Numbered from the stretch's first letter, positions 27,068 to 62,080 are shown. The stretch: 64,000 nt of DNA from a virus (IMGVR_UViG_3300000228_000004:1-64000); one strand, 5' to 3'. Program-made: numbers and translations. Notes: generated from the sequence alone by a model not told the origin.

Positions 27068-28147
27068 TCATACCCACTCCGAAAGACTTTCTTTTTTGTC
27101 ATGCCTTTCTTTCATTTTTCTACCATCTATGTAGAAGTCAGTTATGTTCACGATGTGTTGGGTCAGTGAATTTTTTACTAAAAATTCCATTATATCATTC
27201 GGGTCATATTGAAAAGATATCTCTTCAAAACCAGTTTCTATACTCGTTCTTATATCTTCTGGGATATGTTTGAACAGTACTAAATTTTTATTTCTTTCGA
27301 AATTTTCAACATATATTCTATTTTCAGTAAGTTTAGATTTCAAATCTGCTATGAACTTTTTAGCACCAGCTTCACCGAAAGGAGTTGCTTTGAATATGTC
27401 TAGCTCATCCAACACTTCACCTTTTTTATTGGTTTTATATGTATCGTATTCTGAGTACAGTTTTCTCGAAATGCTTAATTTATTGAATTTCTCTGGTTCA
27501 GTTAGATAAATTTCATTCTTCTTTAAATATGCTTTAAAGTTATCAGTGAATTCAGTACCCCTTTTTATATGTGGTACATTATCGCCTTCATCACCTAAAA
27601 GAACATGGATTAATTTCCACTCTTTTAATTCTTCAGGTGACATTTTAACAAACTCTTTCTTAATTGGGTCATATAACTCTACGCCGTACTCTAATACTTG
27701 TTTAAAGTCTTTGTCGCTAGAAACGACTACAGTTTTTTCAAGTGAGAACTTTTGTGCCAGAACGCCGATAATATCATCAGCTTCTGCTCTATGAACTTCA
27801 ATTACTTTATACGGAAATGATTTATCCAGCGTATCTGTAAATTTGGATACTTCTGAAAAGAACTCTTCAAAATTGACATCACTAGAATCCCTATCTTTTT
27901 TTCTATTACTCTTGTATTCAGGATAATAATCTTTCCGCCAATTATTCTTTGAATCAAGTGCTAACACCATATCACCATATTTTCCGAACTTATCCGAAAG
28001 ATGTCTCAGTGACTGTAGAATTATATGTTTATACATCTTGATAAACTCACTGGTCACATATAAACCACCCTCTTTTGACGGTTTTGATTGTGAAATTGCT
28101 ACATATAATGAACGCATACTCAAATGTGAAAAATCTATTAAAACGAT
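27068..28147 (-). CDS. rnh: RNase H / 5'-3' exonuclease; start re-called to ATC at 28147
   Basis: VLIDFSHL, NWRKDYYPEYK.NR, EADDIIG, SSDKDFKQ, GDEGDNVP. Confidence 0.9.
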   Translation of the reverse strand: MVLIDFSHLSMRSLYVAISQSKPSKEGGLYVTSEFIKMYKHIILQSLRHLSDKFGKYGDMVLALDSKNNWRKDYYPEYKSNRKKDRDSSDVNFEEFFSEVSKFTDTLDKSFPYKVIEVHRAEADDIIGVLAQKFSLEKTVVVSSDKDFKQVLEYGVELYDPIKKEFVKMSPEELKEWKLIHVLLGDEGDNVPHIKRGTEFTDNFKAYLKKNEIYLTEPEKFNKLSISRKLYSEYDTYKTNKKGEVLDELDIFKATPFGEAGAKKFIADLKSKLTENRIYVENFERNKNLVLFKHIPEDIRTSIETGFEEISFQYDPNDIMEFLVKNSLTQHIVNITDFYIDGRKMKERHDKKESLSEWV

Positions 28148-28173
28148 ATCACACCCCCTTTTTTGTATTTTTC

Positions 28174-28201
28174 AGATATTATGTAACCAGACATAATATC
28201 T
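28174..28201. terminator. Intergenic hairpin between ssb and rnh
   Basis: AGATATTATGT-AACCAG-ACATAATATCT; no U-tract on the minus strand, so its role is uncertain. Confidence 0.45.
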
Positions 28202-28215
28202 TATTATAGAACCAA

Positions 28216-29289
28216 TTAAAGATCGTTTAGGAGTGCTAAAATATCATCGTCATCAGTTGAAGAGCTCACTACTTCTCTTTTTACTGATTCTTTTGGTTTT
28301 TCAACGATTGTTTGAACAGGTTCCACTTCGTTGTCATTTGTCTCAACAGTGCCTTTAGCTGGTTTTTTGTCCTCTGTTACTTTAGGTTTGTGGGAACCGC
28401 CCATGATCGGTGTAGCGCCATAATCCACATCATCGGTATCGGTACCGACTTTGGTGGTCGATCCAGATGTTTTACTGTTTTTTTCGTATGGTTCAGTGAT
28501 TACGGCTGATCCAATACTCAGGAGGAAAGATTCAATAGGTGATTTTTCAATAACCCACGCGATTTTATCTTTTAATTCAGTGTATGTTTTGTAATTGTCA
28601 ACTGAAATAAACTCAGTTAAATCATAACATCTTTCTAAAACAGCTTCATCCATTTGTTCTTCATTTTCAAAAGCCTTTGATTTTGCCGCGATTGAAGTGT
28701 TATCATAGTTCACAAACTTGTCTTTTATTTTAGCATCTAAAATAATATCCGCGCCATCTTCTGGATCAAAAAGTTCAATTGGTTTTTTACCTACCTTTAT
28801 TTGATCTTCTGTTGGTTCGAGTGCTTGTTGGAATTTTTCAAACAAACTTTTACCATATTTCCAATAGAAAATTTTACCGTTATTTTCTGGGTTTGATGGG
28901 TCATTCACTACAAGGATATTAGAAATGAATGTTGTTCTTCTAGAAAAATTGTCTTGAATTTTTTTAGCTTCATCCGTTCCAATTTCACCCAATTCGTAAT
29001 AAATTTCAACCATCGGGCAATCTTCTTTAATTGAAGACGGGGATTGTTCGATATACCATCTGTATTTATTTGTTTTTTTATTGAACGACTTGAATGAATG
29101 TTCAAAAATTCTAACCACTGAAGCGGTATCTCCGCCCTTTCCAGGAAGCAACCTGATAACCGCAGTTCCGATACCTTGGTCATTCCTTTGTAATTTCCAC
29201 TCTCTTGGGTCATTATAGTCGTTTACTTGTTTCTCACCAACTCCTTTTTGGAGCTTGTCTTTCATATTTTTCCAGTCGTATTTTCCCAT
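28216..29289 (-). CDS. gp32: Single-stranded DNA-binding protein
   Basis: DPREWKL...GTAVIRLLP, WYIE, NILVVNDPSNPENNGK, acidic tail DDDDILALLNDL. Confidence 0.92.
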   Translation of the reverse strand: MGKYDWKNMKDKLQKGVGEKQVNDYNDPREWKLQRNDQGIGTAVIRLLPGKGGDTASVVRIFEHSFKSFNKKTNKYRWYIEQSPSSIKEDCPMVEIYYELGEIGTDEAKKIQDNFSRRTTFISNILVVNDPSNPENNGKIFYWKYGKSLFEKFQQALEPTEDQIKVGKKPIELFDPEDGADIILDAKIKDKFVNYDNTSIAAKSKAFENEEQMDEAVLERCYDLTEFISVDNYKTYTELKDKIAWVIEKSPIESFLLSIGSAVITEPYEKNSKTSGSTTKVGTDTDDVDYGATPIMGGSHKPKVTEDKKPAKGTVETNDNEVEPVQTIVEKPKESVKREVVSSSTDDDDILALLNDL

Positions 29290-29301: not shown

Positions 29302-30006
29302 TTAAAATAAATTATTTACACTGACCACTATTTGGATCGGCTCATCAGTTACTGTCCACATAGACACGCCATTACCAGTAGTACCTGATTTCTTGATAGA
29401 AACTGAATAATCTTTTTCTGGTAACTTCGCTATATTCTGTATATCAAATTCAACCCTGATACTTTCGGACGCGCTCATTTCAAAATTAGTCACGCTATCG
29501 TTTGACATATTATTATTTCTGTCCAATTTACATACTATGATAGAGCTTTCACCATCTTCTTTACTGTTTACGATAAATGATGTCGATTTCGTCAGGGATG
29601 CTAATTTCTTAAATCTTGCTATTTCACTTGAAGTGATTTCGAAACTAATAATTTCAGGAGTTCCTTGTACTTTTTCTATAGCCGAAACTGGTACATCATA
29701 AGAGCGCATAGAATCTAAGTCAGATGTTTCATATCGTTGTGTATTCTTCCCAGATTGAATTGTGACCAAATTTCCTTCAGCTGAAATTTCAGGTGACTTA
29801 TAAAAATCAATAATTGAAAGAAACTCACTTAGGTTGTCTTCTAGACCAAATTCTTCTAATGGTTCTTCGCCCAATTCTTCAATATTAACAAATGCTATGA
29901 TTGATTTATTTTTCTGTAGTACTGTCGTCCAAGGGTATCTCACGATCGCTGCGTTACCGACGGTGATAAGACTTTTTAAACTTTTTCTAGTTTGTTCATT
30001 TAACAT
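29302..30006 (-). CDS. gp45: Sliding clamp
   Basis: Size and pattern (T..LK.L..., EFGL..LSEFLSII, NI.KL...DY.VSI) match gp45-like clamps; next to ssb. Confidence 0.72.
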   Translation of the reverse strand: MLNEQTRKSLKSLITVGNAAIVRYPWTTVLQKNKSIIAFVNIEELGEEPLEEFGLEDNLSEFLSIIDFYKSPEISAEGNLVTIQSGKNTQRYETSDLDSMRSYDVPVSAIEKVQGTPEIISFEITSSEIARFKKLASLTKSTSFIVNSKEDGESSIIVCKLDRNNNMSNDSVTNFEMSASESIRVEFDIQNIAKLPEKDYSVSIKKSGTTGNGVSMWTVTDEPIQIVVSVNNLF

Positions 30007-30804: not shown

Positions 30805-31902
30805 CTATTCGAAGTTGACTTCTATCTCACGAATTGGATATCCAGCAGATATATATTCATTCAACCTTTCATAAGAATGTTTGAGAACATAATTCTTATT
30901 TGTCTCTCTACCAGATTTTGATTTCGTACTAAAGTCATCGATGAAATCAAAATATCTCATCATATCTTTGTCTTCGTGGAGCCTCATTCCTCTTCCGATT
31001 GATTGATTTAATCTGATTGATGATTTTGTACTAGAAGTCGCGAAAAAGTTATGTAATCTTTTGACATTCATCCCAGTCGAAACTGTTCCTGCGCTTCCTA
31101 TGATTATTCCGTCATCGACCTTCTCAAGTAATGATCTAATTTCATTCCTCATTTCTCCCTCAATAGACCCCTTTATAAGGTAAATATGGAAATCACTGAG
31201 TACCTTTATTCGTTCTATTTCACTATCACTAAAGAATTTTTTCAGTATTTTGATGTCTTTTTCGGTTAAATCAGTTAAGACAAACAGGTTATTAACATCA
31301 CTTGTTTTTGAAAGGAAAGTTTCAACCCGTTTTGGCGTCACTTTTTCCATAATTTCAGGGGCATCAACATTGAATTTTTCCATCAGAATTAACTCAAGTA
31401 AGTATGTACCATGTGATATAGAGTTATACATCACTAAAGAATTTCCATATTTTTGTGTAGTTTGTATTACCATTTTTGCTATAAACCTATTCCGCTTGGA
31501 GTGTTCTTCTATGAACTTAGTTTCCTTTTGGTAGTTGTTTAATTTCTTCACCACTGCCTTATCTGATAATGAATAATTCATATAAACTGTGACGATAGTG
31601 ACTGGTGTAGCTAACCCTCTTTCAATAAGCCCTTGGGGGGTGATTATTCTTTCAGATTTTCCCAAAGTTGATGAGAGCGAGAATCTTCCTTCGAATGTCT
31701 TCGGTAGAGTACCCGTGAGCCCAACTTTATAAAGGCAGTTATTTGATATCTCTAGGAGCTTCGTCAGTGACTCCCCTGTCGCAAGATGACAATTAGAAAC
31801 ATTTAAGCCTTCTGCAAAATAATTATGATTATCTTCAACGTGTAAATTATATGTGTCCCCTGAATAATCGATTTCTTTTATTGAAATTACATTAGACATC
31901 AT
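30805..31902 (-). CDS. uvsW: Split-intein C-part (37 aa, 31792..31902) fused to the C-terminal part of UvsW helicase
   Basis: TYNLHVEDNHNYFAEGLNVSN|CHLA; then GLTGT, STGMNVKRLH, QSIGRGMR, DFIDDF. Confidence 0.9.
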   Translation of the reverse strand: MMSNVISIKEIDYSGDTYNLHVEDNHNYFAEGLNVSNCHLATGESLTKLLEISNNCLYKVGLTGTLPKTFEGRFSLSSTLGKSERIITPQGLIERGLATPVTIVTVYMNYSLSDKAVVKKLNNYQKETKFIEEHSKRNRFIAKMVIQTTQKYGNSLVMYNSISHGTYLLELILMEKFNVDAPEIMEKVTPKRVETFLSKTSDVNNLFVLTDLTEKDIKILKKFFSDSEIERIKVLSDFHIYLIKGSIEGEMRNEIRSLLEKVDDGIIIGSAGTVSTGMNVKRLHNFFATSSTKSSIRLNQSIGRGMRLHEDKDMMRYFDFIDDFSTKSKSGRETNKNYVLKHSYERLNEYISAGYPIREIEVNFE

Positions 31903-33074
31903 CGTAATCCTCGATGCTTTTTATGAGTTTTTCAAGAGAATTCTTATACCATATTTTAATTATTTTTTCTTTTTTAAAAATAGCCACTTTAAATGAATTC
32001 TCGCCATAAAAGGTTATTTGAAAAAATAGCCCCATTTCTTTCATCTTAAACTGTAAATTGTTTAATTGTTCTTTCAATTTTTCTCCTAGATTCTTTTTGA
32101 TGATATTATATTTTTCTTTGATTTCCGTTAAATGTTCGATAAAATATTTTTCCGTGATAATTTTAAAATTACCACTTGAAAATTCTTTTGCTGCGATAAA
32201 CTTGACGAAATTCATTTCTGAATTTATTTCTGAATTTGGTTTTATTTCATATAAAACCCCATCTTTTTCGAAATCAACTATATATTCTATTCGTTTTATG
32301 TAATTCATAAGGTATTCTTATATTTTCATAATTGTAAGTTGGGTGGAGTATGTGGAATATTGCTTCCCAAGAACTCCTAAATGGTAGACCATTCACATAA
32401 CACCTTGTTTTACCCCAAGAATTCGTTACTGCTGGGGTAAAATCACCATTTAATATTTTCTTTTTCATTATCATAGATAATTTTTCGTTCCTCTTTCTTA
32501 AAACTTCTCCTGACATCCTTGAGTTAGGGTTCCTGAGCCCAATAATATTTCGAGAATGTATTTTATTTTCACATTCAAGAGAACAAGTTTCCCGATACCT
32601 AACATGCCTCGTTTTAAACATTTCAAACATTTCGCTCCGTTTTAGACGTTTTTCACAATTTTTACAATTACCCAAAGGATCATAAAAATCTTCTACTTCG
32701 AGATCATTATTCCTATAAAGGGCAGTTTCTGATCTCCCATATTTTAGGAAAATTTTAAAATACTTATTGCCTGATAATAAATGCATACTTTCGTGTAATT
32801 TACTACTGCTGAATTTCAATTTTTTTAATTCTTTTTTAAAATCTTCATCAGAAATTTGTGTAATATTTTCTGGAAAAAATACGGAGTCCAATTTAATGAA
32901 ATCAAATTTTTTTAATTGCTTGAATGAGAATTTCAAATTATCATCGTCTCTTATGTTGTATATTTTTCTAAATTTTAATACTATTTTTGTTTTTATCGAA
33001 GGATGTTTGAATTGTTGAGGATTTTTGAAGAATTGTTTAAAATCTTCTTTTGTTTCGATGTTTTGGATAAGCAT
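31892..33074 (-). pseudogene. Frameshifted TnsA-like PD-(D/E)XK homing endonuclease between the uvsW halves
   Basis: FRSSWE...YENIRIPY...RIY then, in another frame, IVDF...LYEIKP...K..AAKEF; a 2-nt loss in an AT run near 32280 explains the break. Confidence 0.75.
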
Positions 33075-33113
33075 GTAATTTCCTTGCTTTATAATATAAG
33101 GTAGACCTTAAAT

Positions 33114-34094: not shown

Positions 34095-34109
34095 TTAAAA
34101 TCCTTTATG

Positions 34110-45155: not shown

Positions 45156-45733
45156 CGATCACCATTTATTTGAGCCGCAGTTGATTGATAATAGTGAGTA
45201 GTACCAGTTCCGTTATCACTAGAAACCCTCACATATTCATTGAAATTTTTAGCGTTCATAATCCATTTGAATTTTACCAAATAATCACCACTGGGGGTAT
45301 TTTCATAGTACCCAACCACGATATAATCAACAAGTCTATTGTATTTTAAAAAAGTGGTTAAATTCGCCCTTGTCAGTTGGTGTTCATTTGGGTTATTTGC
45401 CCCAGAAATATTGAAATTGAACCATCTATCGTTTTTATTGGAAGGCTTCACTTCTATAAAAGAACCGTCGACCTCAACATCATAAGCAAAAGAGAGAGGA
45501 TTCAACGGGTCATGCTTTTGGGTATTAAGTTTACCGCCAAGAAGTGATGCTAAAGCAACTTCTAGTATTACACCACTTTCGCAGTTTTTCATCAGAACTT
45601 CATCCGTTCTACCGTGTGTTTGACCATTTTCCTTTATCTCTTGAAACAAATTAAGTGATAATTCTGAAATATCTTCTTTAGTGACCACGATTGGTTTTCG
45701 AAGCTTAATTAAAATATTGTTGGTTAAAACCAT
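45140..45733 (-). CDS. Putative PD-(D/E)XK nuclease
   Basis: G...E.A...YDV.V....IEVK motif. Confidence 0.5.
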   Translation of the reverse strand: MVLTNNILIKLRKPIVVTKEDISELSLNLFQEIKENGQTHGRTDEVLMKNCESGVILEVALASLLGGKLNTQKHDPLNPLSFAYDVEVDGSFIEVKPSNKNDRWFNFNISGANNPNEHQLTRANLTTFLKYNRLVDYIVVGYYENTPSGDYLVKFKWIMNAKNFNEYVRVSSDNGTGTTHYYQSTAAQINGDRLSLF

Positions 45734-46410
45734 TCTGTATCCTTTGATGGTGCTGTTTCTTTAATTGAATTTACAATTTCCCAATTTTCGTTAAAATACA
45801 TTTTTACTAACGCGTCTCGACTTTCCTTGAAATCTATATGTTTTACTAGATTATTTTCAGAAGCACCCATATTATTTTTGTAATATATTAACAGGGTTTT
45901 AAAAAGTTCATTGTCCGACCACCCAGATGAATTTTCAGCCCAATCAAGACCTCTGGTTTTTCCAGTTCTCTCGTTCGTTCTTTGCAAAAACTCAGTTATA
46001 TCATCATAATAAGAAGCAATCAAGTGTACTTCATCACACCCATTGGCTTCCCAACTCGGAATATCGCCTCGCTTAGAACGGTTGTTAAAATAACCCTCCA
46101 TAAAAATAGTGGTTATTTCTGGGTATTGTTTTGCTAACGCTGGTATCTTTTCTAACCGTTGTTCCCAATTTGAAAACATTGCTGTATCAAGACTGACCCA
46201 TTGTGTACCACCTTTGGCAAATCTACCCAATACGAACCAACCATTTTCGAATAGGAATCCTATATCTTCTTGCTTAGGTTCTTTACCCTTTCTTTCAATT
46301 TTACCGCGTATCACTGAATACTCGAATTTTGAAATCAAGTAGTTCACTAAGAAATATGTTCTTGTTGATTTCCCGGAACCATTTGACCCCATATAATTGA
46401 TTAGTCTCAC
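45724..46410 (-). CDS. P-loop kinase, candidate 5-hmU-DNA kinase
   Basis: GSNGSGKST, VLGR.......SLDT, FMEG, R..ERTG; lies in the hypermodification cluster. Confidence 0.72.
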   Translation of the reverse strand: MRLINYMGSNGSGKSTRTYFLVNYLISKFEYSVIRGKIERKGKEPKQEDIGFLFENGWFVLGRFAKGGTQWVSLDTAMFSNWEQRLEKIPALAKQYPEITTIFMEGYFNNRSKRGDIPSWEANGCDEVHLIASYYDDITEFLQRTNERTGKTRGLDWAENSSGWSDNELFKTLLIYYKNNMGASENNLVKHIDFKESRDALVKMYFNENWEIVNSIKETAPSKDTEWF

Positions 46411-46443: not shown

Positions 46444-48234
46444 TCATTCTTTTGTTTGACTTAAACCAATTTGTGAAAATTCACCTTTCACGAACCTAGA
46501 AAAAACTTCTTTTATCGTTCCAGATGTATCTAATTCTAATAATTGAACCACATTTCCACCGAGATCGTTGTGTTCTTGATAAACTTTCTTCGCAGTTGAA
46601 AGTCTCTCGTATTTTTTTTCTACTGCTTTAAGTTGGTTCATTTCTTCATCAGATTTACCAGTCCTGTTTTTAATTCTTACCAGTGCTTCTTCGTAGGAAG
46701 TACTTAAAAAAAGTACCACTGGCTTCCTTAGTGTCATATTCTTTAGTGTATCAAAATATGCAGCTATTGTATCTGATGGTATTGAACCCTCTAGATACAC
46801 GCTAAAATCACTGAACTCTTTCCTGTTTAATACTTCTATGGCATACATGATTTCTTTCTTCTTGAGCGTGTCACATCCCCCAAAATTAGATTCCACTCCA
46901 TAGTTACCCAAAGAGATGAAGTTATATTTCGGAAAAACCGTGAAAATGGTTTTCTTAAAATAATTTGAATAAATTTTATACGAAAGAGAATCAGTTGCAA
47001 GCATTTGCTTGGGGATAGTTGATTTTCCGGCACCGTTCCCCCCCTTGACATACATGAAAGTTGGTTCACTTTTTTTAATTATTTCAAAAAAACTTTCATC
47101 AAATTTTTCGACTGGTGTATCAAACCAGTCATCATATAAATTAGGCGCGTAAACTTCTTTCTTAACGATGTCGAGTTCGATGTCCCCAACGAAGTTGAAT
47201 GTTTCTTCGTACTCGTAAATTTCTACTTCAGTGGGCATCTTTCTATTCAAATTTTCGGCGGAAGTTTTAAGGTCTGGTACTGACCCAACTACCCAAAACA
47301 GGGTTTTATCGTTTATCAGTTCTGGGTGATTTTTTAATAGGTATTCGTAAACTTTCGCTTCATATCTATAATGAAATGTTATGTCATCTATTTGAATACC
47401 CTTAATGGTTTTAGAATACGGTTGTTTCGTGTCGTGCCAAATGAATTCAAACATCGATGTGTCAGCACCCATTAAAGAAAGCCTTTCAAACATATAGTCA
47501 CGCTTATCGACCCCCACATTTATGAGGTGTATTCTTTTCAATGCCTTTGGCGTATCTTTATCATCACTTAACCCCAATAATATAGAAGTTGCTGAATTCG
47601 CTGAGCCGAATGGTATGATTAGATCAGTGATAAAGGTTGGTATATTCTTTACCTGATGAGCGCCAACTTTATGGAAATCAGTTACCATCTTAGCTGAATT
47701 CACAGAAAGCCTATGATCCAGAGTGATATCTCTTTCAATGGTAAATGATTTCGGGAACTTTTCCATAACTTCCCCGACCCTCTTTTGTATATTCACATTA
47801 AACCCAGAGCCACTTGATATTTCATACTTAGTACCAAACATAGTCGCGAATAAAGGAAGTTGGTGTTTATTTATAGCGTCGAAACTTGTCCCACCAGCCA
47901 CTTGAATACACCGAAGCCCGTAATGCTCTGCCATTGCGGCAGCCATAATGGTCTGTGGTGATGAGTTGACATTCGTTGCGTGTATTACTGTATCAGCACC
48001 CGTTGGTCTATTTTCAAATAAGTGAAGGAGTTGTCTACACTTAGACCCGTTCGCGGTGTTTATCCCGAAAAGAGAGAATTTATCTTCTCTCTTATAGTAC
48101 ATACCATCTGATTTCTGTTCCACTGGGGTTAGTTCCCACATATAATCTTTCCACCGTTTACCTTCCGGAAGAGGAAAGGGTACAACGGAATCTCGTAAAT
48201 CTTCATTCAGTGTAATTCTTTCTGTCATAACCAC
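46444..48234 (-). CDS. Fold-type II PLP enzyme fused to a second 5-hmU-DNA-kinase-like domain
   Basis: LTPVE...KRED...NGSKCRQ, SPQ, IIPFGSANS, YEAK, LFWVVG; C-terminal KGGNGAGKST, LGNY....FGGCDT, LEG. Confidence 0.8.
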   Translation of the reverse strand: MVMTERITLNEDLRDSVVPFPLPEGKRWKDYMWELTPVEQKSDGMYYKREDKFSLFGINTANGSKCRQLLHLFENRPTGADTVIHATNVNSSPQTIMAAAMAEHYGLRCIQVAGGTSFDAINKHQLPLFATMFGTKYEISSGSGFNVNIQKRVGEVMEKFPKSFTIERDITLDHRLSVNSAKMVTDFHKVGAHQVKNIPTFITDLIIPFGSANSATSILLGLSDDKDTPKALKRIHLINVGVDKRDYMFERLSLMGADTSMFEFIWHDTKQPYSKTIKGIQIDDITFHYRYEAKVYEYLLKNHPELINDKTLFWVVGSVPDLKTSAENLNRKMPTEVEIYEYEETFNFVGDIELDIVKKEVYAPNLYDDWFDTPVEKFDESFFEIIKKSEPTFMYVKGGNGAGKSTIPKQMLATDSLSYKIYSNYFKKTIFTVFPKYNFISLGNYGVESNFGGCDTLKKKEIMYAIEVLNRKEFSDFSVYLEGSIPSDTIAAYFDTLKNMTLRKPVVLFLSTSYEEALVRIKNRTGKSDEEMNQLKAVEKKYERLSTAKKVYQEHNDLGGNVVQLLELDTSGTIKEVFSRFVKGEFSQIGLSQTKE

Positions 48235-49460
48235 TCACTTATTTGTTTTTCTATGGTTGGGGTGATTTTATTATTGGTTTTCTTCCCATACCATTCTTTT
48301 TCTTTTTCTTCGTGATTAATGAAGAAATTATTTTTAAAAACTGGGTTATAATTTTCCATCATAATAACTTCCCCTGTTTTCTTATACCAATTCTGTTTGA
48401 CCTTAACCAATCCTGGGTCATTCGGGTTATCTTCCATCCTAAGTTCAGAAGGAAGATATTTTCTTCTTGCTTCCCAAAAATCTTTGAAATCTATATCAGA
48501 CCCATCAATTTCTTTCCAATCCCTTGTTTCTGCTTTTTTTATTCTATCATGGAACATATCATTATAAACATTAGGATATCTTCTATTTTCCCTGTGCCAA
48601 CTCTTATAGCAACAAAGCGTGGACTCAAGGGTGAAGTAGTTCACATCTTCAAAGAACGGTTCTTGTGAAAATCTTTCCTTGGCATCTGATAATAGTACCG
48701 CGCCCTCTTTTTCTAGCCAAATCATAACTTCTTTGTTATGCCCGTTGACTATTTCTGTTGGTAAATCTTGGTTATCTTTTCTAACATCAAGATCATCCCT
48801 ACCACTCACTACACAAAGACCGTTCCGGTGTGATTTTGAACCAGATTTATCATAAATGAAGAGACTACCGCAATCTATGTTTAATCCCATAATTTTAAGA
48901 TACTCAAGGTATGAAAATGTTGAAAGCCTTCCATACATAAAAAAATCGTTAAAAACGGTATCCCAAACTTTTTCAAAATTTCCATAAACATCACCAGTAT
49001 CACAAAGGTCTGAAAAATACCCTTCTTGCGTTTTACCACCCAATAATTCTAGGTAATTTTGGTACATTTCAATGAAGTGACCCTTTTGGTATCTTCTGTC
49101 GATATCATAGTCGAGGTTTTTCCAATATTCTCTATGCCATTTTTCCATGTCTTCTATAGAAGAAGACCTTAAAGAAGGGAAATGTTTAAATAACACCCAG
49201 GAAGTGAGTGGGTTTTGTGTTGCTCCGTTTATAAACGCGAACCACAATCTTGTCTCAAAATCCCAATCATGTTTCTTAGCCAAGAAAGGCATCACATAAT
49301 ATACTGCCCCTGGATGAGATTTATACTTTAAATGGAACCCATAAAAATTAAGGAAAACTTCTCTTCTATATTCAGGCAACCGAAAATCAACGCCCTCTGC
49401 TAATTCCCTTTCTTCGACCCCATTTATGTGACAAAATCTACCCAATACCATTGATATCAC
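48225..49460 (-). CDS. Amino acid:DNA transferase (aGPT-Pplase clade 2-like)
   Basis: WFAFING.TQNP, D.DRRYQKG, YGRLSTFSYLEYL, SHRNGL, TLESTLC.YKS, RRYP.VY.D. Confidence 0.78.
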   Translation of the reverse strand: MISMVLGRFCHINGVEERELAEGVDFRLPEYRREVFLNFYGFHLKYKSHPGAVYYVMPFLAKKHDWDFETRLWFAFINGATQNPLTSWVLFKHFPSLRSSSIEDMEKWHREYWKNLDYDIDRRYQKGHFIEMYQNYLELLGGKTQEGYFSDLCDTGDVYGNFEKVWDTVFNDFFMYGRLSTFSYLEYLKIMGLNIDCGSLFIYDKSGSKSHRNGLCVVSGRDDLDVRKDNQDLPTEIVNGHNKEVMIWLEKEGAVLLSDAKERFSQEPFFEDVNYFTLESTLCCYKSWHRENRRYPNVYNDMFHDRIKKAETRDWKEIDGSDIDFKDFWEARRKYLPSELRMEDNPNDPGLVKVKQNWYKKTGEVIMMENYNPVFKNNFFINHEEKEKEWYGKKTNNKITPTIEKQISEWL

Positions 49461-51206: not shown

Positions 51207-52388
51207 TCAATGCGTTTTCAACCACTCATCGGTTTGTTTTATTTCAGTATCTGAATCATTTGGATTTCGTTTATACCTATTTCTTGGTCTTCCAGTTTTC
51301 TGTTTCACAGAGACTATTTTTTGTAATTCACAGAAACTGTTTTCACACATCATAACATTTAATTTTCGATCTTCCTCTGGTAAATGGTCAAAAAGTTCAC
51401 TATAATCAATGTGAAGTCCGCGTTTTTCCCATTCAGTCTCTATATTATCCCTGACCCAGAATAATGCTTCTTCGTGGGTCATACCGTCCCTGTCTTCCAT
51501 TAAAAGGTCTATCCCTCTATCACATCCTGGCCCAGACACTACGAATTCATTTTCACTGAACTTGAATTCTGGTATATATGTTAAGTCAACAAATACTTGG
51601 TACGCCAAAAACCCAGCCAATCCTGGGATTTCTCTCAAAATATTGAATACTTCCTCTTGAGTATTCGCCCCTTGAACTCGAGTGGATATATCCGTGTTTT
51701 TAACCCATTGTATCATGTGTATCATCCTAGTTGGCATATTTTTTTCTACACCAACTATTTCATACCCTTCATTTTCTTTAATATACCCCTTTGCTTCTTT
51801 CCAGGTCATTTCTTCTGTGTCAATATGACCTTCTTTTCTTACCTCAACCACCATACCCGAATTCGTGCATTCGTACTCTAATGTTTTAGGGAAAGCCCAA
51901 CTTGCTTTGAGCCCACCAGTGTTAAATGCTGGTGTGAAAAATGCATATTTCGGATTTTCTTTAGCATATTCGATAAATATTTCACGGAACGCGTCTATGT
52001 CTAAATTGTCAAAATCTTCTATGTAACCACCAAATAATTCTGATGTACTAGACTTGTTATATGTTCTGAAGAAGATAGAATTGAGGATCTTTACTTCTAG
52101 TGTTAGATTCGGGTTTGTGCTAATATTCTTAATCAACCATTTAGACTCTCTATCGAGTTCACGCCTTACATTAGTGAATCTATAATTCTTGAACACTTCA
52201 TCGTCTGTCCATTCTTGTTGTGGTAATTTTTCAATTTCTTTTCTTTTGTGTATATTGTGTCTTTCAGACATGAACAAATTATGATATCTTAGCACCTCTT
52301 CATTTAAAATCGGTTTCGCGTTTTTTATCTTTTCGATATCAACACCACAATATCTAATATCGGCTTCCTTTGTTTTCATTAAAACCAT
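51207..52388 (-). CDS. aGPT-Pplase clade 1-like DNA base hypermodification enzyme (HhH glycosylase-like fold)
   Basis: ER..I..RK...WTDD.V...YRFTNVRRELDR, FR.YN, G..GFLAYQV..DL, GPG..RG, EN.FCE..K. Confidence 0.82.
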   Translation of the reverse strand: MVLMKTKEADIRYCGVDIEKIKNAKPILNEEVLRYHNLFMSERHNIHKRKEIEKLPQQEWTDDEVFKNYRFTNVRRELDRESKWLIKNISTNPNLTLEVKILNSIFFRTYNKSSTSELFGGYIEDFDNLDIDAFREIFIEYAKENPKYAFFTPAFNTGGLKASWAFPKTLEYECTNSGMVVEVRKEGHIDTEEMTWKEAKGYIKENEGYEIVGVEKNMPTRMIHMIQWVKNTDISTRVQGANTQEEVFNILREIPGLAGFLAYQVFVDLTYIPEFKFSENEFVVSGPGCDRGIDLLMEDRDGMTHEEALFWVRDNIETEWEKRGLHIDYSELFDHLPEEDRKLNVMMCENSFCELQKIVSVKQKTGRPRNRYKRNPNDSDTEIKQTDEWLKTH

Positions 52389-53548
52389 TCCTCAAGTTTA
52401 AAATTTTGCTTCATATCATAACCAACTGCTTCTAACATAAGGTTAAGTGGTGATATGAAATAATCTTCCCACATTTTACCCCTATCAACATATTTTTCAA
52501 GCCCAGAGTCTGTTATAAAGTCAGAATCTAGAAACCCGATTATATCATCACCTAAAATGTTGGGTTTCTTTAAAATACAATATTTTATTTTATCACTGTC
52601 TGTTATTTTAGGGTATTTGGATAACCCAGTTCTTTCTAAAAAAATATTGTAATTCATTGCCGCCCTTACATTCATTGGCGCAGTTAAAATTTTTCCATTT
52701 TTCTTAGTGGTGAATTTACCTATACCCCCCTTATAATCCAAAGACCCGATACCAGAAACCCTGCATATGTCACCCAATGGTGCTTTGTAGAATTTCTCTT
52801 CTATCTCAGATATAGAAGCAATCGTTTCTTTTGCATCGTTATCTAGAATTACATTCACCATATCTTTGAGATATTTCCTACAAAAGGGCGGAGTAGAAGA
52901 TCGTACTATCTCCAACCCAGTGACCGCCAATTTAGGGTCATCGACAAGTATAGACCCTTCGTCCCAAACGGCACGCAAAGCATATTTTTTCTTTGCAACA
53001 AACATCCCTTTATCGGCAATTTTTTCAAGTTTTGCCCCGATGGGCTTGGCACTAAATGCGTTGAAATTGTCTGAGAAAGAATCTATGTATTCTTGGACCC
53101 ATACATCGAGGTATTTATGATCAAAATTAACAAGTTTATCAAGTATTTCGTGATTATTAGCGGTGTCGAATTTTTTTACTAATTCATTAAGAGTAAAATA
53201 CACAGAGTCGGTGTCACCATAAACTACAAAGTCAATATTGGTATTAAGAACACTTCGTAACTTCCCATTTACATAATTCGCCAATCCTTGTATAAATATC
53301 CTACCGTTCCCAGTGATACTTGCAGCAACATCTCGATTGAATAGTAAAAAGTGTATATTTGCTAGAGCACCATATAATGAGTTCATCGAAATCTTTAGAG
53401 CCATCTGATATACATCGAAATAAGCAATTCTAGTGTCTATATATTTCATATCTGCCGTTAAACCACTAACATCCAAATCGTTGATTTTATCAATCGTCAT
53501 TGAACCGTCTTCTATACCATCGTAAATTTCTTCTATTGTCATGTTCAC
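52379..53548 (-). CDS. gp43: Family B DNA polymerase, C-terminal piece (fingers helix, palm, thumb)
   Basis: QMALKISMNSLYG, YGDTDS, KKKYA, GLEIVRSSTP. Confidence 0.92.
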   Translation of the reverse strand: MNMTIEEIYDGIEDGSMTIDKINDLDVSGLTADMKYIDTRIAYFDVYQMALKISMNSLYGALANIHFLLFNRDVAASITGNGRIFIQGLANYVNGKLRSVLNTNIDFVVYGDTDSVYFTLNELVKKFDTANNHEILDKLVNFDHKYLDVWVQEYIDSFSDNFNAFSAKPIGAKLEKIADKGMFVAKKKYALRAVWDEGSILVDDPKLAVTGLEIVRSSTPPFCRKYLKDMVNVILDNDAKETIASISEIEEKFYKAPLGDICRVSGIGSLDYKGGIGKFTTKKNGKILTAPMNVRAAMNYNIFLERTGLSKYPKITDSDKIKYCILKKPNILGDDIIGFLDSDFITDSGLEKYVDRGKMWEDYFISPLNLMLEAVGYDMKQNFKLEEWF

Positions 53549-54268: not shown

Positions 54269-54300
54269 TTTAGACCCTTTATGTTTAATTATTATATAAT

Positions 54301-54817: not shown

Positions 54818-54903
54818 TTGCCCCTCGATAAAAATTTATAATATTTACACCGAATATAGTTTATTGAGATTAATAACCATTCGTGATCTCATTTCTTTGT
54901 TTT

Positions 54904-55359: not shown

Positions 55360-55805
55360 TCAACTTCCTTTCTTGTTTCTTCTATCTTACATATAAAAAA
55401 TGCGTTACCATTACCTTCCTCTCCTGTATAAAAACCACTTGTGATAAAATAATTACGAGTTTCACTGTCGTATATAACCCACTTCCACTTAGTCACCGTT
55501 TTTGGTTTTATGCGGTAACAGTCTGATGTATGATTCCACAAGAACCCATCAAATTTTAACAGATTTTCAAAATTGTTTGGAACCCATTTACTTGAACACT
55601 CATCATATATCTCAATCTGTGATGCATTATCTATGAATTGCTTTCGTATTTCTGAGTGCTCGTCATCTACGATGTAGTGGAAATTATTATACCATCCTGG
55701 TTCTACTACCTTAACCCACTCTGTGTGCCTTTTTTCCCTATACCAAACATTTGTACCATCAGGTCTATCCGCCCATCTATTAATTTCTCTTCTATGGTGT
55801 TTCAT
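55356..55805 (-). CDS. Tandem paralog family member 2
   Basis: Same motifs as its neighbours. Confidence 0.7.
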   Translation of the reverse strand: MKHHRREINRWADRPDGTNVWYREKRHTEWVKVVEPGWYNNFHYIVDDEHSEIRKQFIDNASQIEIYDECSSKWVPNNFENLLKFDGFLWNHTSDCYRIKPKTVTKWKWVIYDSETRNYFITSGFYTGEEGNGNAFFICKIEETRKEVE

Positions 55806-56266
55806 ACTTCAAACTCTCTTTCAGTTTCTTCGATTTTACAAACAAATATATGGAATTTACTTTTTGAACCATCTACATAGTAACCATTTGATATTCTATG
55901 TTCATTCGTTAAGATATCTTTTATAACCCACTTCCACATAGTTACCGTTTTCGGTTTTACCCGATACCTATGCCCCATATCAAGAAATTTCGTTAGGCTA
56001 TCTAGCTCCCGTCTATCAGTTGCTACCCACTTATCATCGATATAGTGGTGCCACTCGACCCTTGTCGGGTCATCAAGGAATTGCTTTCGTATTTTAGCGT
56101 GTTTGTCATCTACTATGTATAAGAGATCTGTATTCCAACTCGGGTGGGCTGTTAGTATCCACTCCAGTTCATTTTGTCTTTTAAACCATACACCAGTTGC
56201 TTCTGGTGCGTCAGCCCAGCGTATTATTTCACTTCTATGCTTTTTCATCTTTTGAATATCCCCCAT
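55802..56266 (-). CDS. Tandem paralog family member 1
   Basis: Same motifs as its neighbours. Confidence 0.7.
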   Translation of the reverse strand: MGDIQKMKKHRSEIIRWADAPEATGVWFKRQNELEWILTAHPSWNTDLLYIVDDKHAKIRKQFLDDPTRVEWHHYIDDKWVATDRRELDSLTKFLDMGHRYRVKPKTVTMWKWVIKDILTNEHRISNGYYVDGSKSKFHIFVCKIEETEREFEV

Positions 56267-56472
56267 GATTTTAATAGCGTATATTCCAGTTCGGTGATAT
56301 CACTTATTTCTCCCCGAGACAGTGAGATTCACTAATCTTATATCCTGCTTCCTGGAGCTTTTTAATCGCTTTTTCTATTTTCATTTTTTATCCTCTGAAT
56401 CTTTCAGGGCATACTCTGTTCCCGTTCCGTACCTGTTTGTCTTTTGCTCGATACCTTTGTACATCAGGTATA

Positions 56473-56736
56473 TCAGTCCAATTTTAATTCAAATTTGGTA
56501 CAACCATTGCAGTATTCAAGTATCATTGAACAATCACCGTCTATAATGCTGCAATATTCGATAGACATGAACCCTTCACAGTTTTTGCAGTTTATGCTTT
56601 TATCAAACCCATCATAGTTTTCTATTGTGAAATCTACCACATCATGTAACATCAAACTCATAACCCTTGGTTGGTCAACCAATATAAATTTATTTTTTAT
56701 TTCATCTACTGTCATCTTATATCTCCAAAAGTTCAC
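56473..56736 (-). CDS. Small Cys-rich protein
   Basis: CKNC...C...C...C..C. Confidence 0.5.
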   Translation of the reverse strand: MNFWRYKMTVDEIKNKFILVDQPRVMSLMLHDVVDFTIENYDGFDKSINCKNCEGFMSIEYCSIIDGDCSMILEYCNGCTKFELKLD

Positions 56737-56945
56737 TATATAAATTTAATCACTTTTTATAGTGATACCTCTGCTTTTTCGTGTATACCTGCCTCTTTAA
56801 GCCTTTTAACCACTAACTTCTTTCACCGTTTTTATATCTATCGTGTTAGATATATCAGGGTATATAGCGAACACGCCATACCATACCCAAAGTACTGTTT
56901 GGATAAATGGTATTCAGGCAAATTCACGATTTCAATAATTTCATA

Positions 56946-57074
56946 TTAAACGCCGAATTTTGCCCTAAAATCATTTAACATTTCAAGTAAGTCTTCTACT
57001 TGAAATTGATTCAACCATTCTCTAGTCAATCCGAACTCATTTGCTAATGTATTCACTACTTGTGATTTTGCCAT
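56946..57074 (-). CDS. 42-aa early peptide MAKSQVVNTLANEFGLTREWLNQF...
   Basis: Open frame directly after a promoter-RBS cassette. Confidence 0.55.
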   Translation of the reverse strand: MAKSQVVNTLANEFGLTREWLNQFQVEDLLEMLNDFRAKFGV

Positions 57075-57106
57075 TTTAGACCCTTTATGTTTAATTGTTA
57101 TAATAT

Positions 57107-57141
57107 ATTATACCGCAAGTTAGCTTAAAGTAAGGTTAAAC
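57107..57141 (-). promoter_or_regulatory. Conserved early promoter containing the stop codon of the middle PolB piece
   Basis: GTTTAACCTTACTTTAAGCTAACTTGCGGTATAAT. Confidence 0.8.
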
Positions 57142-58401
57142 AGTCTTCAATTTAGCTTGTAATGCTTTATACATTAACATTTTTCTCTTTACTTCTTTCC
57201 TAGTAGAATAAATGTTCCCTACTATTTCGGGTATTATACCCTCATTGTCACGCCTAAAGAAAGCATTCATGCCAAAAGCAACATCATATTTATGCGTAAC
57301 TTCTCTAATTTCAGCAAGGCTATCAGGATTAAGGTACACTTCTTCATGCTCGTGTGTGTGATACTTAGCTCGTAAATTTTTCAATTCTTGAGGCAACTCA
57401 TATTCATTTATATATGTTTCTGGTGACATATTAAAAGCGCGCATACCAAGTAACGGGTACATTGAGTTGACGTCGACTGAAACCAACCAATTATGTTTAC
57501 CCTTTTGTGGTTGTCGAACATAACCACCAATAATTGTTTTATCTAGGCGGCTATGTCTGTCGAACGGCATTACAAGTCCCTCTTTCATAGCAAGGTTAGT
57601 CAGATATTGCCCCCAAGGTTTAACAGTGCCGAAGGAGTCATCCATATTAATACCCATCATTGAAGATAAAATTTTCATAAGCTCTATTAACTTCAGTTTA
57701 TCCTCTAGTTTTTTCAGGAGCAAAACATCTTGTATAGAATATTCTATGAATAAGTCTTTATCCCCGTGATAGAAATCTACTATATCATCAAACTTCCCAT
57801 AGTCAACCTTACCCTCACCAACACCAAGTTCCACTTTAACGATGTTGTCCAATGCGTATGACACTTGTGGCTTAGTTACGAACTTTTTGTATGCTTTCAT
57901 CATATCGATTAGATAAATTCCTTCCCAGTCATAGTTCATCCCTTCCATCGTTTTTATCTCTTTAACTTTATTAATTGGGGATAATCTTCTATAATTCACC
58001 CCGTCCAATTTCATTGCTCTGTTAGTGATATATGGGAAGTCGAATGAATCACCATTCCAAGCAGTTATAACCGTCGGTTTTAAATTTTCAAGTAATTTAA
58101 TAAAATCTTTAAAAAGTTCTTTTTCATCATAGTAGTGTTTGAATATCAAATTATCATATTTCTTAAATTTGGTTTCGTCGACCATTTTGTCTAAACTTAG
58201 AATTATTATCTTGTTGCTATAACTGTCGTATATCTGTATTTGTGAAACTGTCTTTTCAGCAAGCTGAGGATCTGGGAATGACTTATCTGCGTAATAACAT
58301 GAATTTTTAAATAAAACCCATTCATTCAATTCTTCATCGAATACTTCATAGTCAGTATAATCTTCAGCAAGAATCTCCGACATTTTCATTATTTTTTCCA
58401 T
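57136..58401 (-). CDS. gp43: Family B DNA polymerase, middle piece (ExoII/III, motif A, first fingers helix)
   Basis: FPDP, AWNGDSFDFPYI, SYALD, YSIQDV, GGYV, SVDVNSMYP, NMSPET, RK..K. Confidence 0.92.
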   Translation of the reverse strand: MEKIMKMSEILAEDYTDYEVFDEELNEWVLFKNSCYYADKSFPDPQLAEKTVSQIQIYDSYSNKIIILSLDKMVDETKFKKYDNLIFKHYYDEKELFKDFIKLLENLKPTVITAWNGDSFDFPYITNRAMKLDGVNYRRLSPINKVKEIKTMEGMNYDWEGIYLIDMMKAYKKFVTKPQVSYALDNIVKVELGVGEGKVDYGKFDDIVDFYHGDKDLFIEYSIQDVLLLKKLEDKLKLIELMKILSSMMGINMDDSFGTVKPWGQYLTNLAMKEGLVMPFDRHSRLDKTIIGGYVRQPQKGKHNWLVSVDVNSMYPLLGMRAFNMSPETYINEYELPQELKNLRAKYHTHEHEEVYLNPDSLAEIREVTHKYDVAFGMNAFFRRDNEGIIPEIVGNIYSTRKEVKRKMLMYKALQAKLKTV

Positions 58402-59781: not shown

Positions 59782-59788
59782 ACTAATC

Positions 59789-61147
59789 CTAATTGAAATT
59801 TATTACTGAAGTATCCATATCTCGTTCAGTCGCTTTTTGTAAAACATGTGTATTCGCTTTCGCCACTTGTTGCTCGACACCATCTTCATCAAGGTCACTG
59901 AACCTGACAGTAGAAAAATCCGTTTCAACTAAATGCGATGAAAGCATACCTGTGTTCCTATTCTTTAAGAACTTAATTAGGCTTTGATTCATTTCCCTTA
60001 ATTGTGGGTTAGAAAGTAACGCGATTACATTGTCAGCGGTCTGTATAACACCAAGTGAGTCAGCGATAGAGTCCAACCCTGACTCTAAGTTATCAAAACT
60101 CCCTCTGTTTAACTGGGCAGCAGTTAGTGCGATTATATCCTCTTTCTTGCTAAAACCATGTAATTCTTCCGCGATAGACTTGTAATAGGCATACCCACCA
60201 GCCGTACCTAAAGAAACCCTTGTTGACGCCATTAAGCCTATGTAATCAATACATATTAAGTCTGGCGTGAAACCATCCTTTGACTTCAATTCATTTAAAA
60301 GTGCTTTTAATGTCAATGTACTGAAAGTACCAGATGGAAAATCCTTAATGACCAAATTCCCAGCTATTTCTGAAATGGATTTCATCCTACTTTCAAATTC
60401 TTTTCTATCTAATTTACCCAAATCGTTAGCAGGGTGGTTCAAAAGATTAGCGTCTATCCTTCTAGCGATTTCCATATCAGTCATTTCCAGTGAAATGAAT
60501 AAAACATTCTTCCCAGATAAGTAAGCCGAACTTGCCGCCGACATAAGGATCGCACTTTTACCGCCGTGTGAAGGTGCTACGATTAAATTCAATGTTTTAG
60601 ACCTCAACCCACTACCAAGTGCCAAATCTACCGACGGGAGCCCGATACTAAGCCCAGATATTCTTTGAGTATAGTAATCATATCTTTCTAGTGTGGCTTT
60701 TTCTTCCTTGTATTTCATCCCTATATCATAGTCAAATGAAATACTCAGTGCTTTCTCTATCATACCAATAATAGGTTCGAATGGCTGGTCATTTTCTATT
60801 AAATCGGCTGATTTAAAAATTGCTTCAGATAATTCTTCTTTTTGGATATATTTTTCAGTTTGGTCAATTAAAAATTCTTTATTTTCAACAGATGGTTCAA
60901 GAATAACTTCTTTGAATTGCCCAATAACTTTAAGTTTGATATTCTCACTCACCTCACCTGAATTTTTAATAAAAATACCAAGTTCTTTAGGGTTTGGGGT
61001 AGCATCGTATTCTTTGTTATATTGTACTAGAGCCTTAAATATCTCAGAATTTTCTAAGTTCGAAAAATGTGAACTCTTTAAGTGCGGGAAAACCTTTGCG
61101 AAATATTCTGGGTCAACTATCAAATTTTTCAGTATTACACTTTCCAC
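59789..61147 (-). CDS. gp41: Replicative DnaB-like helicase
   Basis: APSHGGKS, ISLEM, RRIDAN, IDYIGLM, AEEL, AAQLNR, ADS, KNR. Confidence 0.92.
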   Translation of the reverse strand: MESVILKNLIVDPEYFAKVFPHLKSSHFSNLENSEIFKALVQYNKEYDATPNPKELGIFIKNSGEVSENIKLKVIGQFKEVILEPSVENKEFLIDQTEKYIQKEELSEAIFKSADLIENDQPFEPIIGMIEKALSISFDYDIGMKYKEEKATLERYDYYTQRISGLSIGLPSVDLALGSGLRSKTLNLIVAPSHGGKSAILMSAASSAYLSGKNVLFISLEMTDMEIARRIDANLLNHPANDLGKLDRKEFESRMKSISEIAGNLVIKDFPSGTFSTLTLKALLNELKSKDGFTPDLICIDYIGLMASTRVSLGTAGGYAYYKSIAEELHGFSKKEDIIALTAAQLNRGSFDNLESGLDSIADSLGVIQTADNVIALLSNPQLREMNQSLIKFLKNRNTGMLSSHLVETDFSTVRFSDLDEDGVEQQVAKANTHVLQKATERDMDTSVINFN

Positions 61148-61269
61148 ATCAATCCTTTTATTACAACGCGATGTATATTATTTTCACATGCGCGTTACCA
61201 CCCATAACGGGGGTGTTTGTTTTGGTTATTATACCACATTAATATAAAATCAAACTTAATCAACCTTTG

Positions 61270-62080
61270 CTAAAACCACTCAGAAACTAACTCTAAATTT
61301 TCACTGAAAAATAAACATTCCAAATTTCCATTTTTTTGTTTGTTGGTTGAAGGAGCAGTTGAATTCATTTCCCTTATTTTTTCGAATTTTAAATCACCAT
61401 TTATATTGTTCAGTATATCTGTATAAACATAATCAAAATCCCCTTTTTTTAAAAAGTCAATGAATTCGCGTAAATCGTTTTCAGAAAACCCACTATAAGA
61501 TGAAGCTTGTGAAAAATAAGGGGATCTAAAAAATACAGCGCATCGGTGTTCCCCATCAGGGTTTTATATGATAGATTAGTAATCTTTGTCTTTCTTAATA
61601 CATCTTTCACTGAATTGAAATCCGTTTCATTTAAAGTGTAAAATCTACCCCCGAAGCTTTGATTCATACCGTTTGGTCCAAATCTTAAAAATGAATTAAT
61701 ACAAGAATTTGTTAAAAAATGTAGATATACCCCTTCCTCTTCTACCCCAGTCTTCCAGAAATTTTGATTGAACCAATCCCTGAAAGCATAATAAGAATTT
61801 TTGTCTTCTTTTATATATCCCCAAATTTCTCTAGTACGAACCGTTGTTCTTGGGTATATTCTTTGAAATTTATTATTTTAAATGTTTCGTACATTCTATA
61901 TATATTTTCGTCTAAATCATTTACCGAATATTCATCAAATGATTTATCCAAATTAAACAAAACCGCACCTGAACCGACGAAAGGTTCTATATAAATTTCC
62001 TTTTTCGTATTATTGATGTATTCATTTATGATACCGACAAACTTAGATTTACTGCCGGAATACCTAAAAAATTTTAACAT
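61270..62080 (-). pseudogene. dam: DNA adenine methyltransferase (Dam/D12 class) with two frameshifts
   Basis: FRYSGSK, EPFVGSGAV, ND; a +2 shift near 61815 and a -1 shift near 61522 that breaks DPPY; the reconstructed protein ends LVSEWF. Confidence 0.8.

Follow-up and report, generated by a model that had tools for sequence, protein, structure and literature searches.

The record IMGVR_UViG_3300000228_000004 is a single phage contig of 110,523 bp with a GC content of 34%, and the window analyzed here comprises its first 64 kb (positions 1-64000). In this phage, the family B DNA polymerase (PolB), an RNase H/FEN-type nuclease and several enzymes of a predicted thymidine-hypermodification pathway end in the same short tail, which quite likely is the form that the T4-type clamp-interaction tail takes in this lineage, acting on a gp45-like sliding clamp and carried here by hypermodification enzymes. 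Base hypermodification in this phage would then probably be performed by enzymes that ride the replication clamp. Comparison of the tails across phages supports a docking site common to the polymerase and the modification enzymes; that this site is the clamp is suggested by homology with T4 and by the behavior of gp33 and gp55.

The minus strand carries nearly all genes of the window, including all those that encode the tail. Open reading frames (ORFs) were obtained by longest-ORF calling and annotated by Pfam and PHROG searches; the C-termini are independent of the choice of start codons, and a few of the small ORFs are perhaps not genes. The C-termini quoted in a preliminary description of this DNA are all present. 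The C-terminal half of the gp43-like PolB (52379..53548, Pfam DNA_pol_B) ends with FKLEEWF, where L-E-E-W-F occupies positions 52382-52396 and the stop codon 52379-52381. The HMUDK_hel-domain protein (51207..52388; PF18723, E 1e-60), an ortholog of gp160 of Salmonella phage ViI, that is, aGPT-Pplase1, is 40% identical to gp160, has its likely true start at 52379 (TAATG) and ends with KQTDEWLKTH; the motif T-D-E-W-L (51219-51233) is followed by three residues, KTH, compared with four in T4 gp55. The amino-acid:DNA transferase (48225..49460; phrog_3271), also known as aGPT-Pplase clade 2, ADDT or AADT, ends with KQISEWL (I-S-E-W-L at 48228-48242); its tblastn matches are annotated as aGPT-Pplase clade 2, with homology that stops near residue 373, and its homologs carry PF18724. 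The second kinase of 5-hydroxymethyldeoxyuridine (5-hmdU) DNA, HMUD2 (45724..46410), which scores 24.3 bits with PF18747 (cut-off 25), ends with SKDTEWF (D-T-E-W-F at 45727-45741). RNase H, a FEN-type 5'-3' exonuclease (27068..28123) that contains PF02739 and is matched by T4 rnh (phmmer, 1e-24), ends with ESLSEWV (L-S-E-W-V at 27071-27085).

Two further genes carry the motif in altered form. A fusion of a pyridoxal phosphate (PLP) enzyme with the 5-hmdU DNA kinase HMUDK (46444..48234; PF18748 at residues 391-552) has no motif at its own C-terminus but contains an internal D-D-W-F at the domain junction (47122-47133, within NLYDDWF), as the preliminary description had pointed out. The ELVSEWF end that it had reconstructed for a D12-class Dam methyltransferase is real as well (V-S-E-W-F at 61273-61287, stop codon at 61270-61272), although the gene itself (61270..62080, read in three frames) is broken by two frameshifts: in tblastn comparison with the intact, 269-aa ortholog from a close relative (PF02086), these are a +2 bp change in an AT repeat that follows codon 89 and, within the DPPY motif, a -1 bp change. 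The Dam pieces are otherwise 74-76% identical to that ortholog and contain no further stop codons. Either the gene became a pseudogene recently or the assembly is in error at this place.

A proteome-wide motif count of the kind proposed in the preliminary description yields a strong C-terminal enrichment. Exact E-W-[FLV] ends are found on 5 of the ~189 ORFs in the 110.5-kb genome, with ~0.09 expected. The 33,247 residues examined contain 21 instances of the wider pattern EW[FLVIM], of which five form the last three residues of an ORF (~0.09 expected, Poisson P ~5e-8). The carriers are DNA-acting proteins, four of the five being proteins named in advance, and one candidate clamp-dependent transcription factor, an 82-aa ORF outside the window (genome 68060-68308) that ends with NIEEWV. 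A short motif that is both hydrophobic and acidic, [LIVM]-x-E-W-[FLVIM]-COOH, is thus present at the end of five ORFs and of the Dam remnant. The thymidylate-synthase-like, MazG-like and dNMP-kinase-like proteins have no such tail, in agreement with the claim that it is missing from nucleotide-pool enzymes. The motif is replicated independently in the 82-kb fragment of a close relative (G001), which has five terminal cases against 0.05 expected (Poisson P 5e-8 or smaller).

Relatives were collected from IMG/VR and include three fragments of close phages (G001-G003, with PolB sequences 72-78% identical) and two distant ones, all of them contig fragments. The tail persists in the close relatives with modest variation: PolB ends with EEWM, EEWI and DEWGF in G001, G002 and G003, respectively, aGPT-Pplase1 with DEWL, DEWL and NEWF, AADT with LEWF in G001 and GEWI in G002, and HMUD2 with MDEWL in G001 and MDEWI in G002. 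RNase H of G001 ends with AMDEWI, the intact Dam proteins with DEWL (G002) and ELVSEWF (G003), and the gp33-like protein of G002 with SEWL. The orthologs that keep the tail are 37-79% identical, and their alignments show the same organization: conserved domains are followed by linkers with indels of 1-13 residues (8-13 in HMUD2) and little identity, and then by the invariant E-W. Among the 15 closest metagenomic homologs of AADT (69-79% identity), the linkers before the tail are unrelated and 11 end with EW[LI]; the remaining four end with DEWLI, SDWI, AEWD and IDEW. The polar, linker-like stretch that had been described upstream of the motif is divergent and changes in length among orthologs from four relatives, with the tail kept. 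Retained behind unrelated linkers of variable length, the tail behaves as a short linear docking motif does. In G002, a stand-alone PLP enzyme ends with VINEWIGE; in the alignment, this end matches the DDWF inside the fused PLP-HMUDK protein, a relic motif at the fusion junction.

The broader set of metagenomic AADT homologs (P0185-P0289) displays several clade-specific tails, namely [ST]LE[AEG]F[FL], [LI]-[ND]-[DA]-W, GIE[DE]F[IL] and Q-x-[ST]-L-F, and many of these proteins end at the domain boundary with no tail. The Q-x-[ST]-L-F ends of some distant homologs resemble the bacterial beta-clamp motif QL[SD]LF, which is a lead only; this motif is not present in the tails of the phage analyzed here. 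Variation of the AADT tail, including the Q-x-S-L-F-type ends, may reveal whether the phage or the host clamp is used.

The covariation of tails across lineages is the strongest evidence provided by sequence comparison. If the modification enzymes use the same docking site as the polymerase, a change in the PolB tail should recur on the modification enzymes of the same phage, and this is what is observed. In Salmonella phage ViI, PolB ends with RRVNLLSMMGKKG, aGPT-Pplase1 (gp160) with GSVNLLDRLKKPE, the kinase gp243 with SSVSLLGLMRKA and the serine:DNA transferase gp247 with TSVNLMSLLKR, which together share the pattern VNLLSxM; gp160 is located in the clamp/clamp-loader operon. Of the five VNL[LM] sequences in the ViI proteome, four are C-terminal. 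In Vibrio phage 1.244.A (Ackermannviridae), the ends are KARKLW in PolB, TKRLW in both aGPT-Pplase1 and HMUD2, TRKLW in AADT and TRKLF in a bona fide gp33 homolog; five of the seven occurrences of [KR][KR]LW in this proteome are terminal. In Delftia phage PhiW-14, PolB (KLGAFFV) and the putrescine:DNA transferase gp109 (GLGSFFR) share the pattern LGxFF, which is also seen in a PD-(D/E)XK nuclease (GLGGFFA) and a DUF4326 protein (GLGAFFT), and the gp55 homolog ends with IARFMV. The activities of ViI gp243 and gp247 and of PhiW-14 gp109 have been shown experimentally. In the distant relative G004 (IMGVR_UViG_3300028042_000003), PolB ends with IDIW, a gp33-like protein with IDEW, a 536-aa protein with LDEW and an N6-methyltransferase fragment with EEIW.

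A motif-free version of this comparison, in which the last 12 residues of every ORF in a genome were compared with the PolB tail and the ORFs ranked accordingly, gave the same picture. The named enzymes are within the top 7 of 188 ORFs in the phage analyzed here, the top 8 of 173 in G001, the top 5 of 235 in ViI and the top 10 of 226 in the Vibrio phage. Applied to T4, the ranking recovers the known clamp binders, with gp55 first and gp33 third among 281 ORFs; the T4 Dam is not among the top gp43-like tails, and the glucosyltransferases are outside the top ten. Several small or uncharacterized proteins also stand out. A 70-aa, Cys-rich protein of ViI, Vi01_049c (L035 30355-30567), ends with the polymerase-type tail DKVNLLSLMRK, a 98-aa protein of the Vibrio phage (60010-60306; L050 10-306) ends with KTKRLW, and Vi01_129c of ViI (85844-87319), a 491-aa protein encoded next to gp160, ends with SSSLMKKVA; none of the three has a Pfam match. 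By the criterion of their ends, these are candidate new clamp clients.

The PolB tail also provides the connection to T4. The C-terminal half of PolB is 32-35% identical to T4-like gp43 proteins, in tblastn alignments that reach the last residue, and in a multiple alignment (A2) KLEEWF is placed in the columns of SLDFLFG of T4 gp43 and SLEFLFG of Syn9, which makes it, by this alignment, the positional homolog of the gp45-binding tail of gp43. In the T4 record, gp43, gp55 and gp33 end with SLDFLFG, SLDFLYEAND and TLDFLL, respectively. These T4 tails bind gp45, are interchangeable, follow divergent linkers and remain functional when made internal by fusion, and gp45 is the sole known common partner of the three proteins in T4 (PMC2988020). 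The structure of the RB69 clamp with a bound peptide and the pocket residues have been summarized (PMC3012046). The 82-aa ORF ending with EEWV is the only match, a sub-threshold one, to PF16805 (the gp33 family) in the genome (E 2e-4, 18-19 bits), and its G004 ortholog is encoded two genes downstream of a gp55 homolog. It is no more than a candidate gp33-like late-transcription coactivator. The Vibrio gp33 homolog and the PhiW-14 gp55 homolog carry the tails of their lineages.

The proposed docking hub is encoded at 29302..30006 on the minus strand. The AlphaFold model of this ORF is of moderate quality (mean pLDDT 66, with a weak N-domain) and has the two-domain clamp fold of ~230 residues typical of T4 gp45; its best Foldseek matches in the PDB are T4 gp45 1czd, 6drt, 1b77 (E ~1e-6, TM 0.58) and 3u61_F, followed by PCNAs. 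The ORF itself has no Pfam or PHROG match, including PF09116 and PF02916, and a profile made from the clamp alignment retrieved only spurious internalin matches among PDB sequences; a homolog that is 65% identical (P0011) carries PF09116, and T4 gp45 finds the G004 homolog at 1e-5. Judged from the modeled fold and these homologs, the ORF is a gp45-type sliding clamp, as had been claimed in the preliminary description. A complex prediction for the clamp trimer (alignment A5, 130 rows) with residues 372-411 of the transferase gave a score of 0.30 (mark 0.32), was run without controls and weighs neither way. The clamps of the other lineages differ in charge, with a net charge of -22 in the Vibrio phage (MG592609 18000-18689), -11 in ViI (gp45, YP_004327506; 91596-92264) and -7 in T4, and the Vibrio phage clamp has Asp at the place of the pocket residue Arg32 of T4 and RB69, in a single comparison with an uncertain alignment. 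As no more than a hint, the acidic Vibrio clamp may fit the basic KRLW tail as a compensatory change.

Under the proposed mechanism, the tail, [hydrophobic]-x-E-W-[FLVIM]-COOH on a flexible, fast-evolving linker, would insert into a hydrophobic pocket of the gp45-like clamp. The usual clients, that is, the polymerase, FEN/RNase H and probably the gp33-like coactivator, would be joined by enzymes that work on 5-hmdU within duplex DNA (HMUD2 kinase, HMUDK_hel/aGPT-Pplase1 and the amino-acid:DNA transferase) and, further, by Dam methyltransferases and, in relatives, the stand-alone PLP enzyme. Once loaded at the fork, clamps that stay behind on the daughter duplexes would recruit the kinase, the transferases and, in genomes with an intact gene, Dam to freshly made 5-hmdU DNA, and the tethered enzymes would then slide along this DNA or scan it. 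Because the clamp is a trimer, one ring could hold successive enzymes of the pathway, as in the 'toolbelt' idea for PCNA. We infer that the tail raises the efficiency or processivity of modification in such a toolbelt arrangement; the coupling could occur at the fork itself or on the clamps left behind. The preliminary description had already interpreted the tail as a clamp-docking element, and what this interpretation predicts at the sequence level, namely C-terminal enrichment, conservation in orthologs, the position of the gp43 tail, the clamp fold, covariation within lineages and, where gp33 and gp55 homologs are identifiable, the same pattern on these, was found in each case. As a general rule, it appears somewhat better than an even bet that, in clamp-encoding phages, the enzymes of thymidine hypermodification that act at the DNA level, along with Dam-type methyltransferases, dock on the clamp via tails that coevolve with the polymerase, the clamp being a moving assembly line.

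Several observations weigh against clamp docking. In vitro, the ViI enzymes need no clamp for their activity (PMC8989533), so that the tail is dispensable for catalysis. T4 RNase H binds the clamp by its N-terminus, whereas its C-terminal domain binds gp32 (PMC3012046); a C-terminal tail on RNase H alone is therefore not diagnostic, and RNase H of G004 ends with QIPLL. In the proteome of the phage analyzed here, the tail is missing from some DNA-acting enzymes, including the HMUDK (gp67-type) kinase, a DenB-like nuclease, the ligase and the helicases. The gp33-like match in this group of phages reaches 18-19 bits, short of the Pfam cut-off of 25, and that of the G002 ortholog is sub-threshold too; hhalign comparison of three gp33-like ORFs with T4 gp33 on its own gave no significant result (E 0.09), and a gp55 profile built from T4, G004, PhiW-14 and the Vibrio phage detected no gp55 in this phage or in G001. 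Finally, the motifs of ViI, the Vibrio phage and PhiW-14 were formulated with the sequences in view, although homology had determined the enzyme sets in advance.

Among the alternatives, docking on another replisome hub, such as gp32, the DnaB-like helicase or the clamp loader, is unlikely. The single-strand DNA-binding protein gp32 (28216..29289, minus strand; PF08804, E 5e-34) was considered as such a hub: its gene adjoins those for RNase H and the clamp, it has a conserved acidic tail of its own (DDDDILALLNDL), and T4 RNase H contacts gp32 by its C-terminal domain, its clamp motif being N-terminal (PMC3012046). This alternative does not fit the position of the PolB tail in the alignment columns of the clamp-binding tail of gp43, the status of gp45 as the only known common partner of T4 gp43, gp55 and gp33, or the presence of the lineage tail on the gp33 homolog of the Vibrio phage and the gp55 homolog of PhiW-14. 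A terminal motif that is borne by the clients and binds a pocket on the hub is the pattern of clamps, whereas in hubs of the SSB type the motif is located on the hub itself.

It is still less likely that the tail is a sorting or turnover signal of early DNA-metabolism proteins, such as a degron or a localization tag, with no docking on the replisome. Short hydrophobic C-termini can serve as protease tags, and the carriers are all likely to be early or middle gene products; such a signal, however, would leave unexplained the exact T4 clamp-tail position of the polymerase tail, the lack of tails on nucleotide-pool enzymes of the same clusters, and the internal relic at the fusion junction, and it would have to account for four lineages with very different hosts in which the tails each change in step with their own polymerase. 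Chance, composition or a by-product at the DNA level, such as overlapping starts or a repeated 3' element, is highly improbable and can be considered effectively refuted. Three motif genes seem to overlap the next ORF by 10 nt, but because GA[AG]TGG always contains ATG or GTG these overlaps are artifacts of longest-ORF calling; the downstream genes in fact begin at TAATG or ATGA, and for two of the carriers there is no overlapping gene, so that start-codon overlap as the force behind the E-W codons was rejected. A repeated 3' DNA element was rejected as well: codons, stop codons and downstream DNA vary between copies, with codon usage and 3' flanks differing in every lineage, so that selection acts on the protein. 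Nor would chance be compatible with the Poisson probabilities in two genomes or with the retention of the tail in diverged orthologs despite changing linkers.

Tails that bind the clamp are textbook knowledge for phage polymerases and late-transcription factors, and the recruitment by PCNA of FEN-1, via a C-terminal PCNA-interacting peptide (PIP), and of the maintenance methyltransferase DNMT1 is well known. The T4/RB69 clients of gp45 (gp43, gp55 and gp33; 1b77/1b8h) resemble the proteins described here in having the motif at the extreme C-terminus behind a divergent linker, on polymerase and non-polymerase carriers alike, with the PolB tail in homologous columns and a clamp of the gp45 fold. 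They differ in the motif, which is L-D-F-L-F there and x-E-W-hydrophobic here, and in the clients: here, base-modifying enzymes and Dam bear the tail, whereas in T4 neither the glucosyltransferases nor Dam are ranked with the gp43-like tails. In the case of eukaryotic and archaeal PCNA, too, a flap nuclease and a DNA-modifying enzyme are brought to new DNA by a clamp-binding peptide, and RNase H/FEN of the phage analyzed here has its motif at the C-terminus, as FEN-1 does and T4 RNase H does not. In contrast to the PCNA clients, the tails described here do not conform to the canonical PIP box (Qxx[LIM]xx[FY][FY]; consensus in PMC3012046), having no Gln at the required position and a W-hydrophobic pattern, the clamp is that of a phage, and the bases are derived from 5-hmdU rather than cytosine. 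The closest phage precedent is the interaction of T4 alpha-glucosyltransferase with gp45, that is, a base-modifying enzyme working on the clamp during replication. This interaction was put forward in 2004 on the basis of in vitro work, and a 2025 preprint, with enzymes His-tagged at the C-terminus, failed to reproduce it (10.64898/2025.12.06.692756); T4 alpha-glucosyltransferase has no gp43-like tail, whereas here, in four lineages, the enzymes share a tail that covaries with that of the polymerase.

The pathways of ViI, M6, PhiW-14 and SP10 (Lee et al. 2018, 2021) employ the same set of enzymes, including 5-HMUDK/HMUD2 kinases, aGPT-Pplase1, aGPT-Pplase2/ADDT, the PLP enzyme and the thymidylate-synthase-like hydroxymethylase; they were described as chemistry on naked DNA, and the clamp, the replisome and C-terminal tails are nowhere mentioned. 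A literature search for aGPT-Pplase or DNA modification together with the clamp found nothing relevant, with subscription journals outside its coverage, so that an earlier description is possible. This outcome, along with the silence of the two defining papers on the clamp, agrees with the statement in the preliminary description that such coupling had not been described for thymidine hypermodification. What appears to be new here, going by the tails, are variants of the clamp-tail motif and a new class of clients in four lineages; the kind of tail is already known. Post-replicative hypermodification of thymidine has been reconstituted from purified enzymes on naked DNA. To the questions of how several enzymes reach and process so many thymidines while the genome replicates, and of why modification is only partial, a clamp tail in common with the polymerase brings a concrete mechanism, which is open to immediate test because ViI and PhiW-14 are cultured and the enzymes are cloned. 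If correct, it would add a new client class for phage sliding clamps and four new variants of the clamp-binding motif, and would provide a bacteriophage parallel to the coupling of PCNA and DNMT1. In practical terms, C-terminal tags on hypermodification enzymes may mask the motif, and the ranking of ORF tails against the polymerase tail is a simple route to the discovery of phage clamp clients, flagging, for example, Vi01_049c.

The remaining gene content of the window fits a phage with a T4-like replication module, in which RNase H/FEN, gp32, a DnaB-like helicase (59789-61147), a split family B polymerase and, just beyond the window, a gp44-like clamp-loader subunit are recognized. The PolB gene is split into the C-terminal half and an N-terminal, exonuclease half (57136..58401, minus strand; DNA_pol_B_exo1 and DNA_pol_B) that are ~3.6 kb apart, and the same split is present in G001, G002, G003 and the Vibrio phage. 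The gap between the halves (window 52379-58401) contains, along with other small ORFs, three tandem paralogous ORFs (54904-56266), each ending with CKIEET followed by further residues. The thymidine-hypermodification cluster encodes together a 5-hmdU DNA kinase, aGPT-Pplase1, aGPT-Pplase2/ADDT, a PLP enzyme and a thymidylate-synthase-like hydroxymethylase (42947-44041, PF00303); the domain evidence consists of PF18748, PF18747, PF18723 and PF00303, ADDT was assigned through its homologs, and the PLP domain is 33% identical to ViI gp226. The cluster is predicted to make hypermodified thymidine in this phage, which is known from its contig alone. Megablast of the cluster against GenBank phages gave no match, and the phage has no close GenBank relative. 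A MazG-like protein is encoded at 50107-50748.

Hint/intein modules are found at several loci (window 30805-34094, genome 65012-65902 and L007 2003-4852). They interrupt a UvsW-like helicase, with the N-part of the intein on 33114-34094, the C-part of the helicase at 30805-31902 and an endonuclease ORF (32274-33074) between the two parts; a RecA/UvsX-like gene carries such an interruption, too, and the DnaB-like helicase of G003 is in three pieces. Three other proteins have C-termini that are conserved in the clade: the DHH-family protein (window 62096-63076) ends with I-x-x-P-F (INTPF, INMPF, QIIPF), the DnaB-like helicase with V-[IM]-[NQ]-F-[ND] and gp32 with D-I-L-A-[LM]-L-[ND]-D-[LM]. These ends, too, may serve in docking. 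G004 has, in addition, another and far larger family of common C-terminal tails, in which 35 of the 205 ORFs (65-236 aa) end with P-E-x-[YFW]-L, for example YPEYYL, and 35 of the 36 occurrences of this pattern in the proteome are terminal (e.g., 33864-34805, 62185-64933 and 84898-99454; L023-L029).

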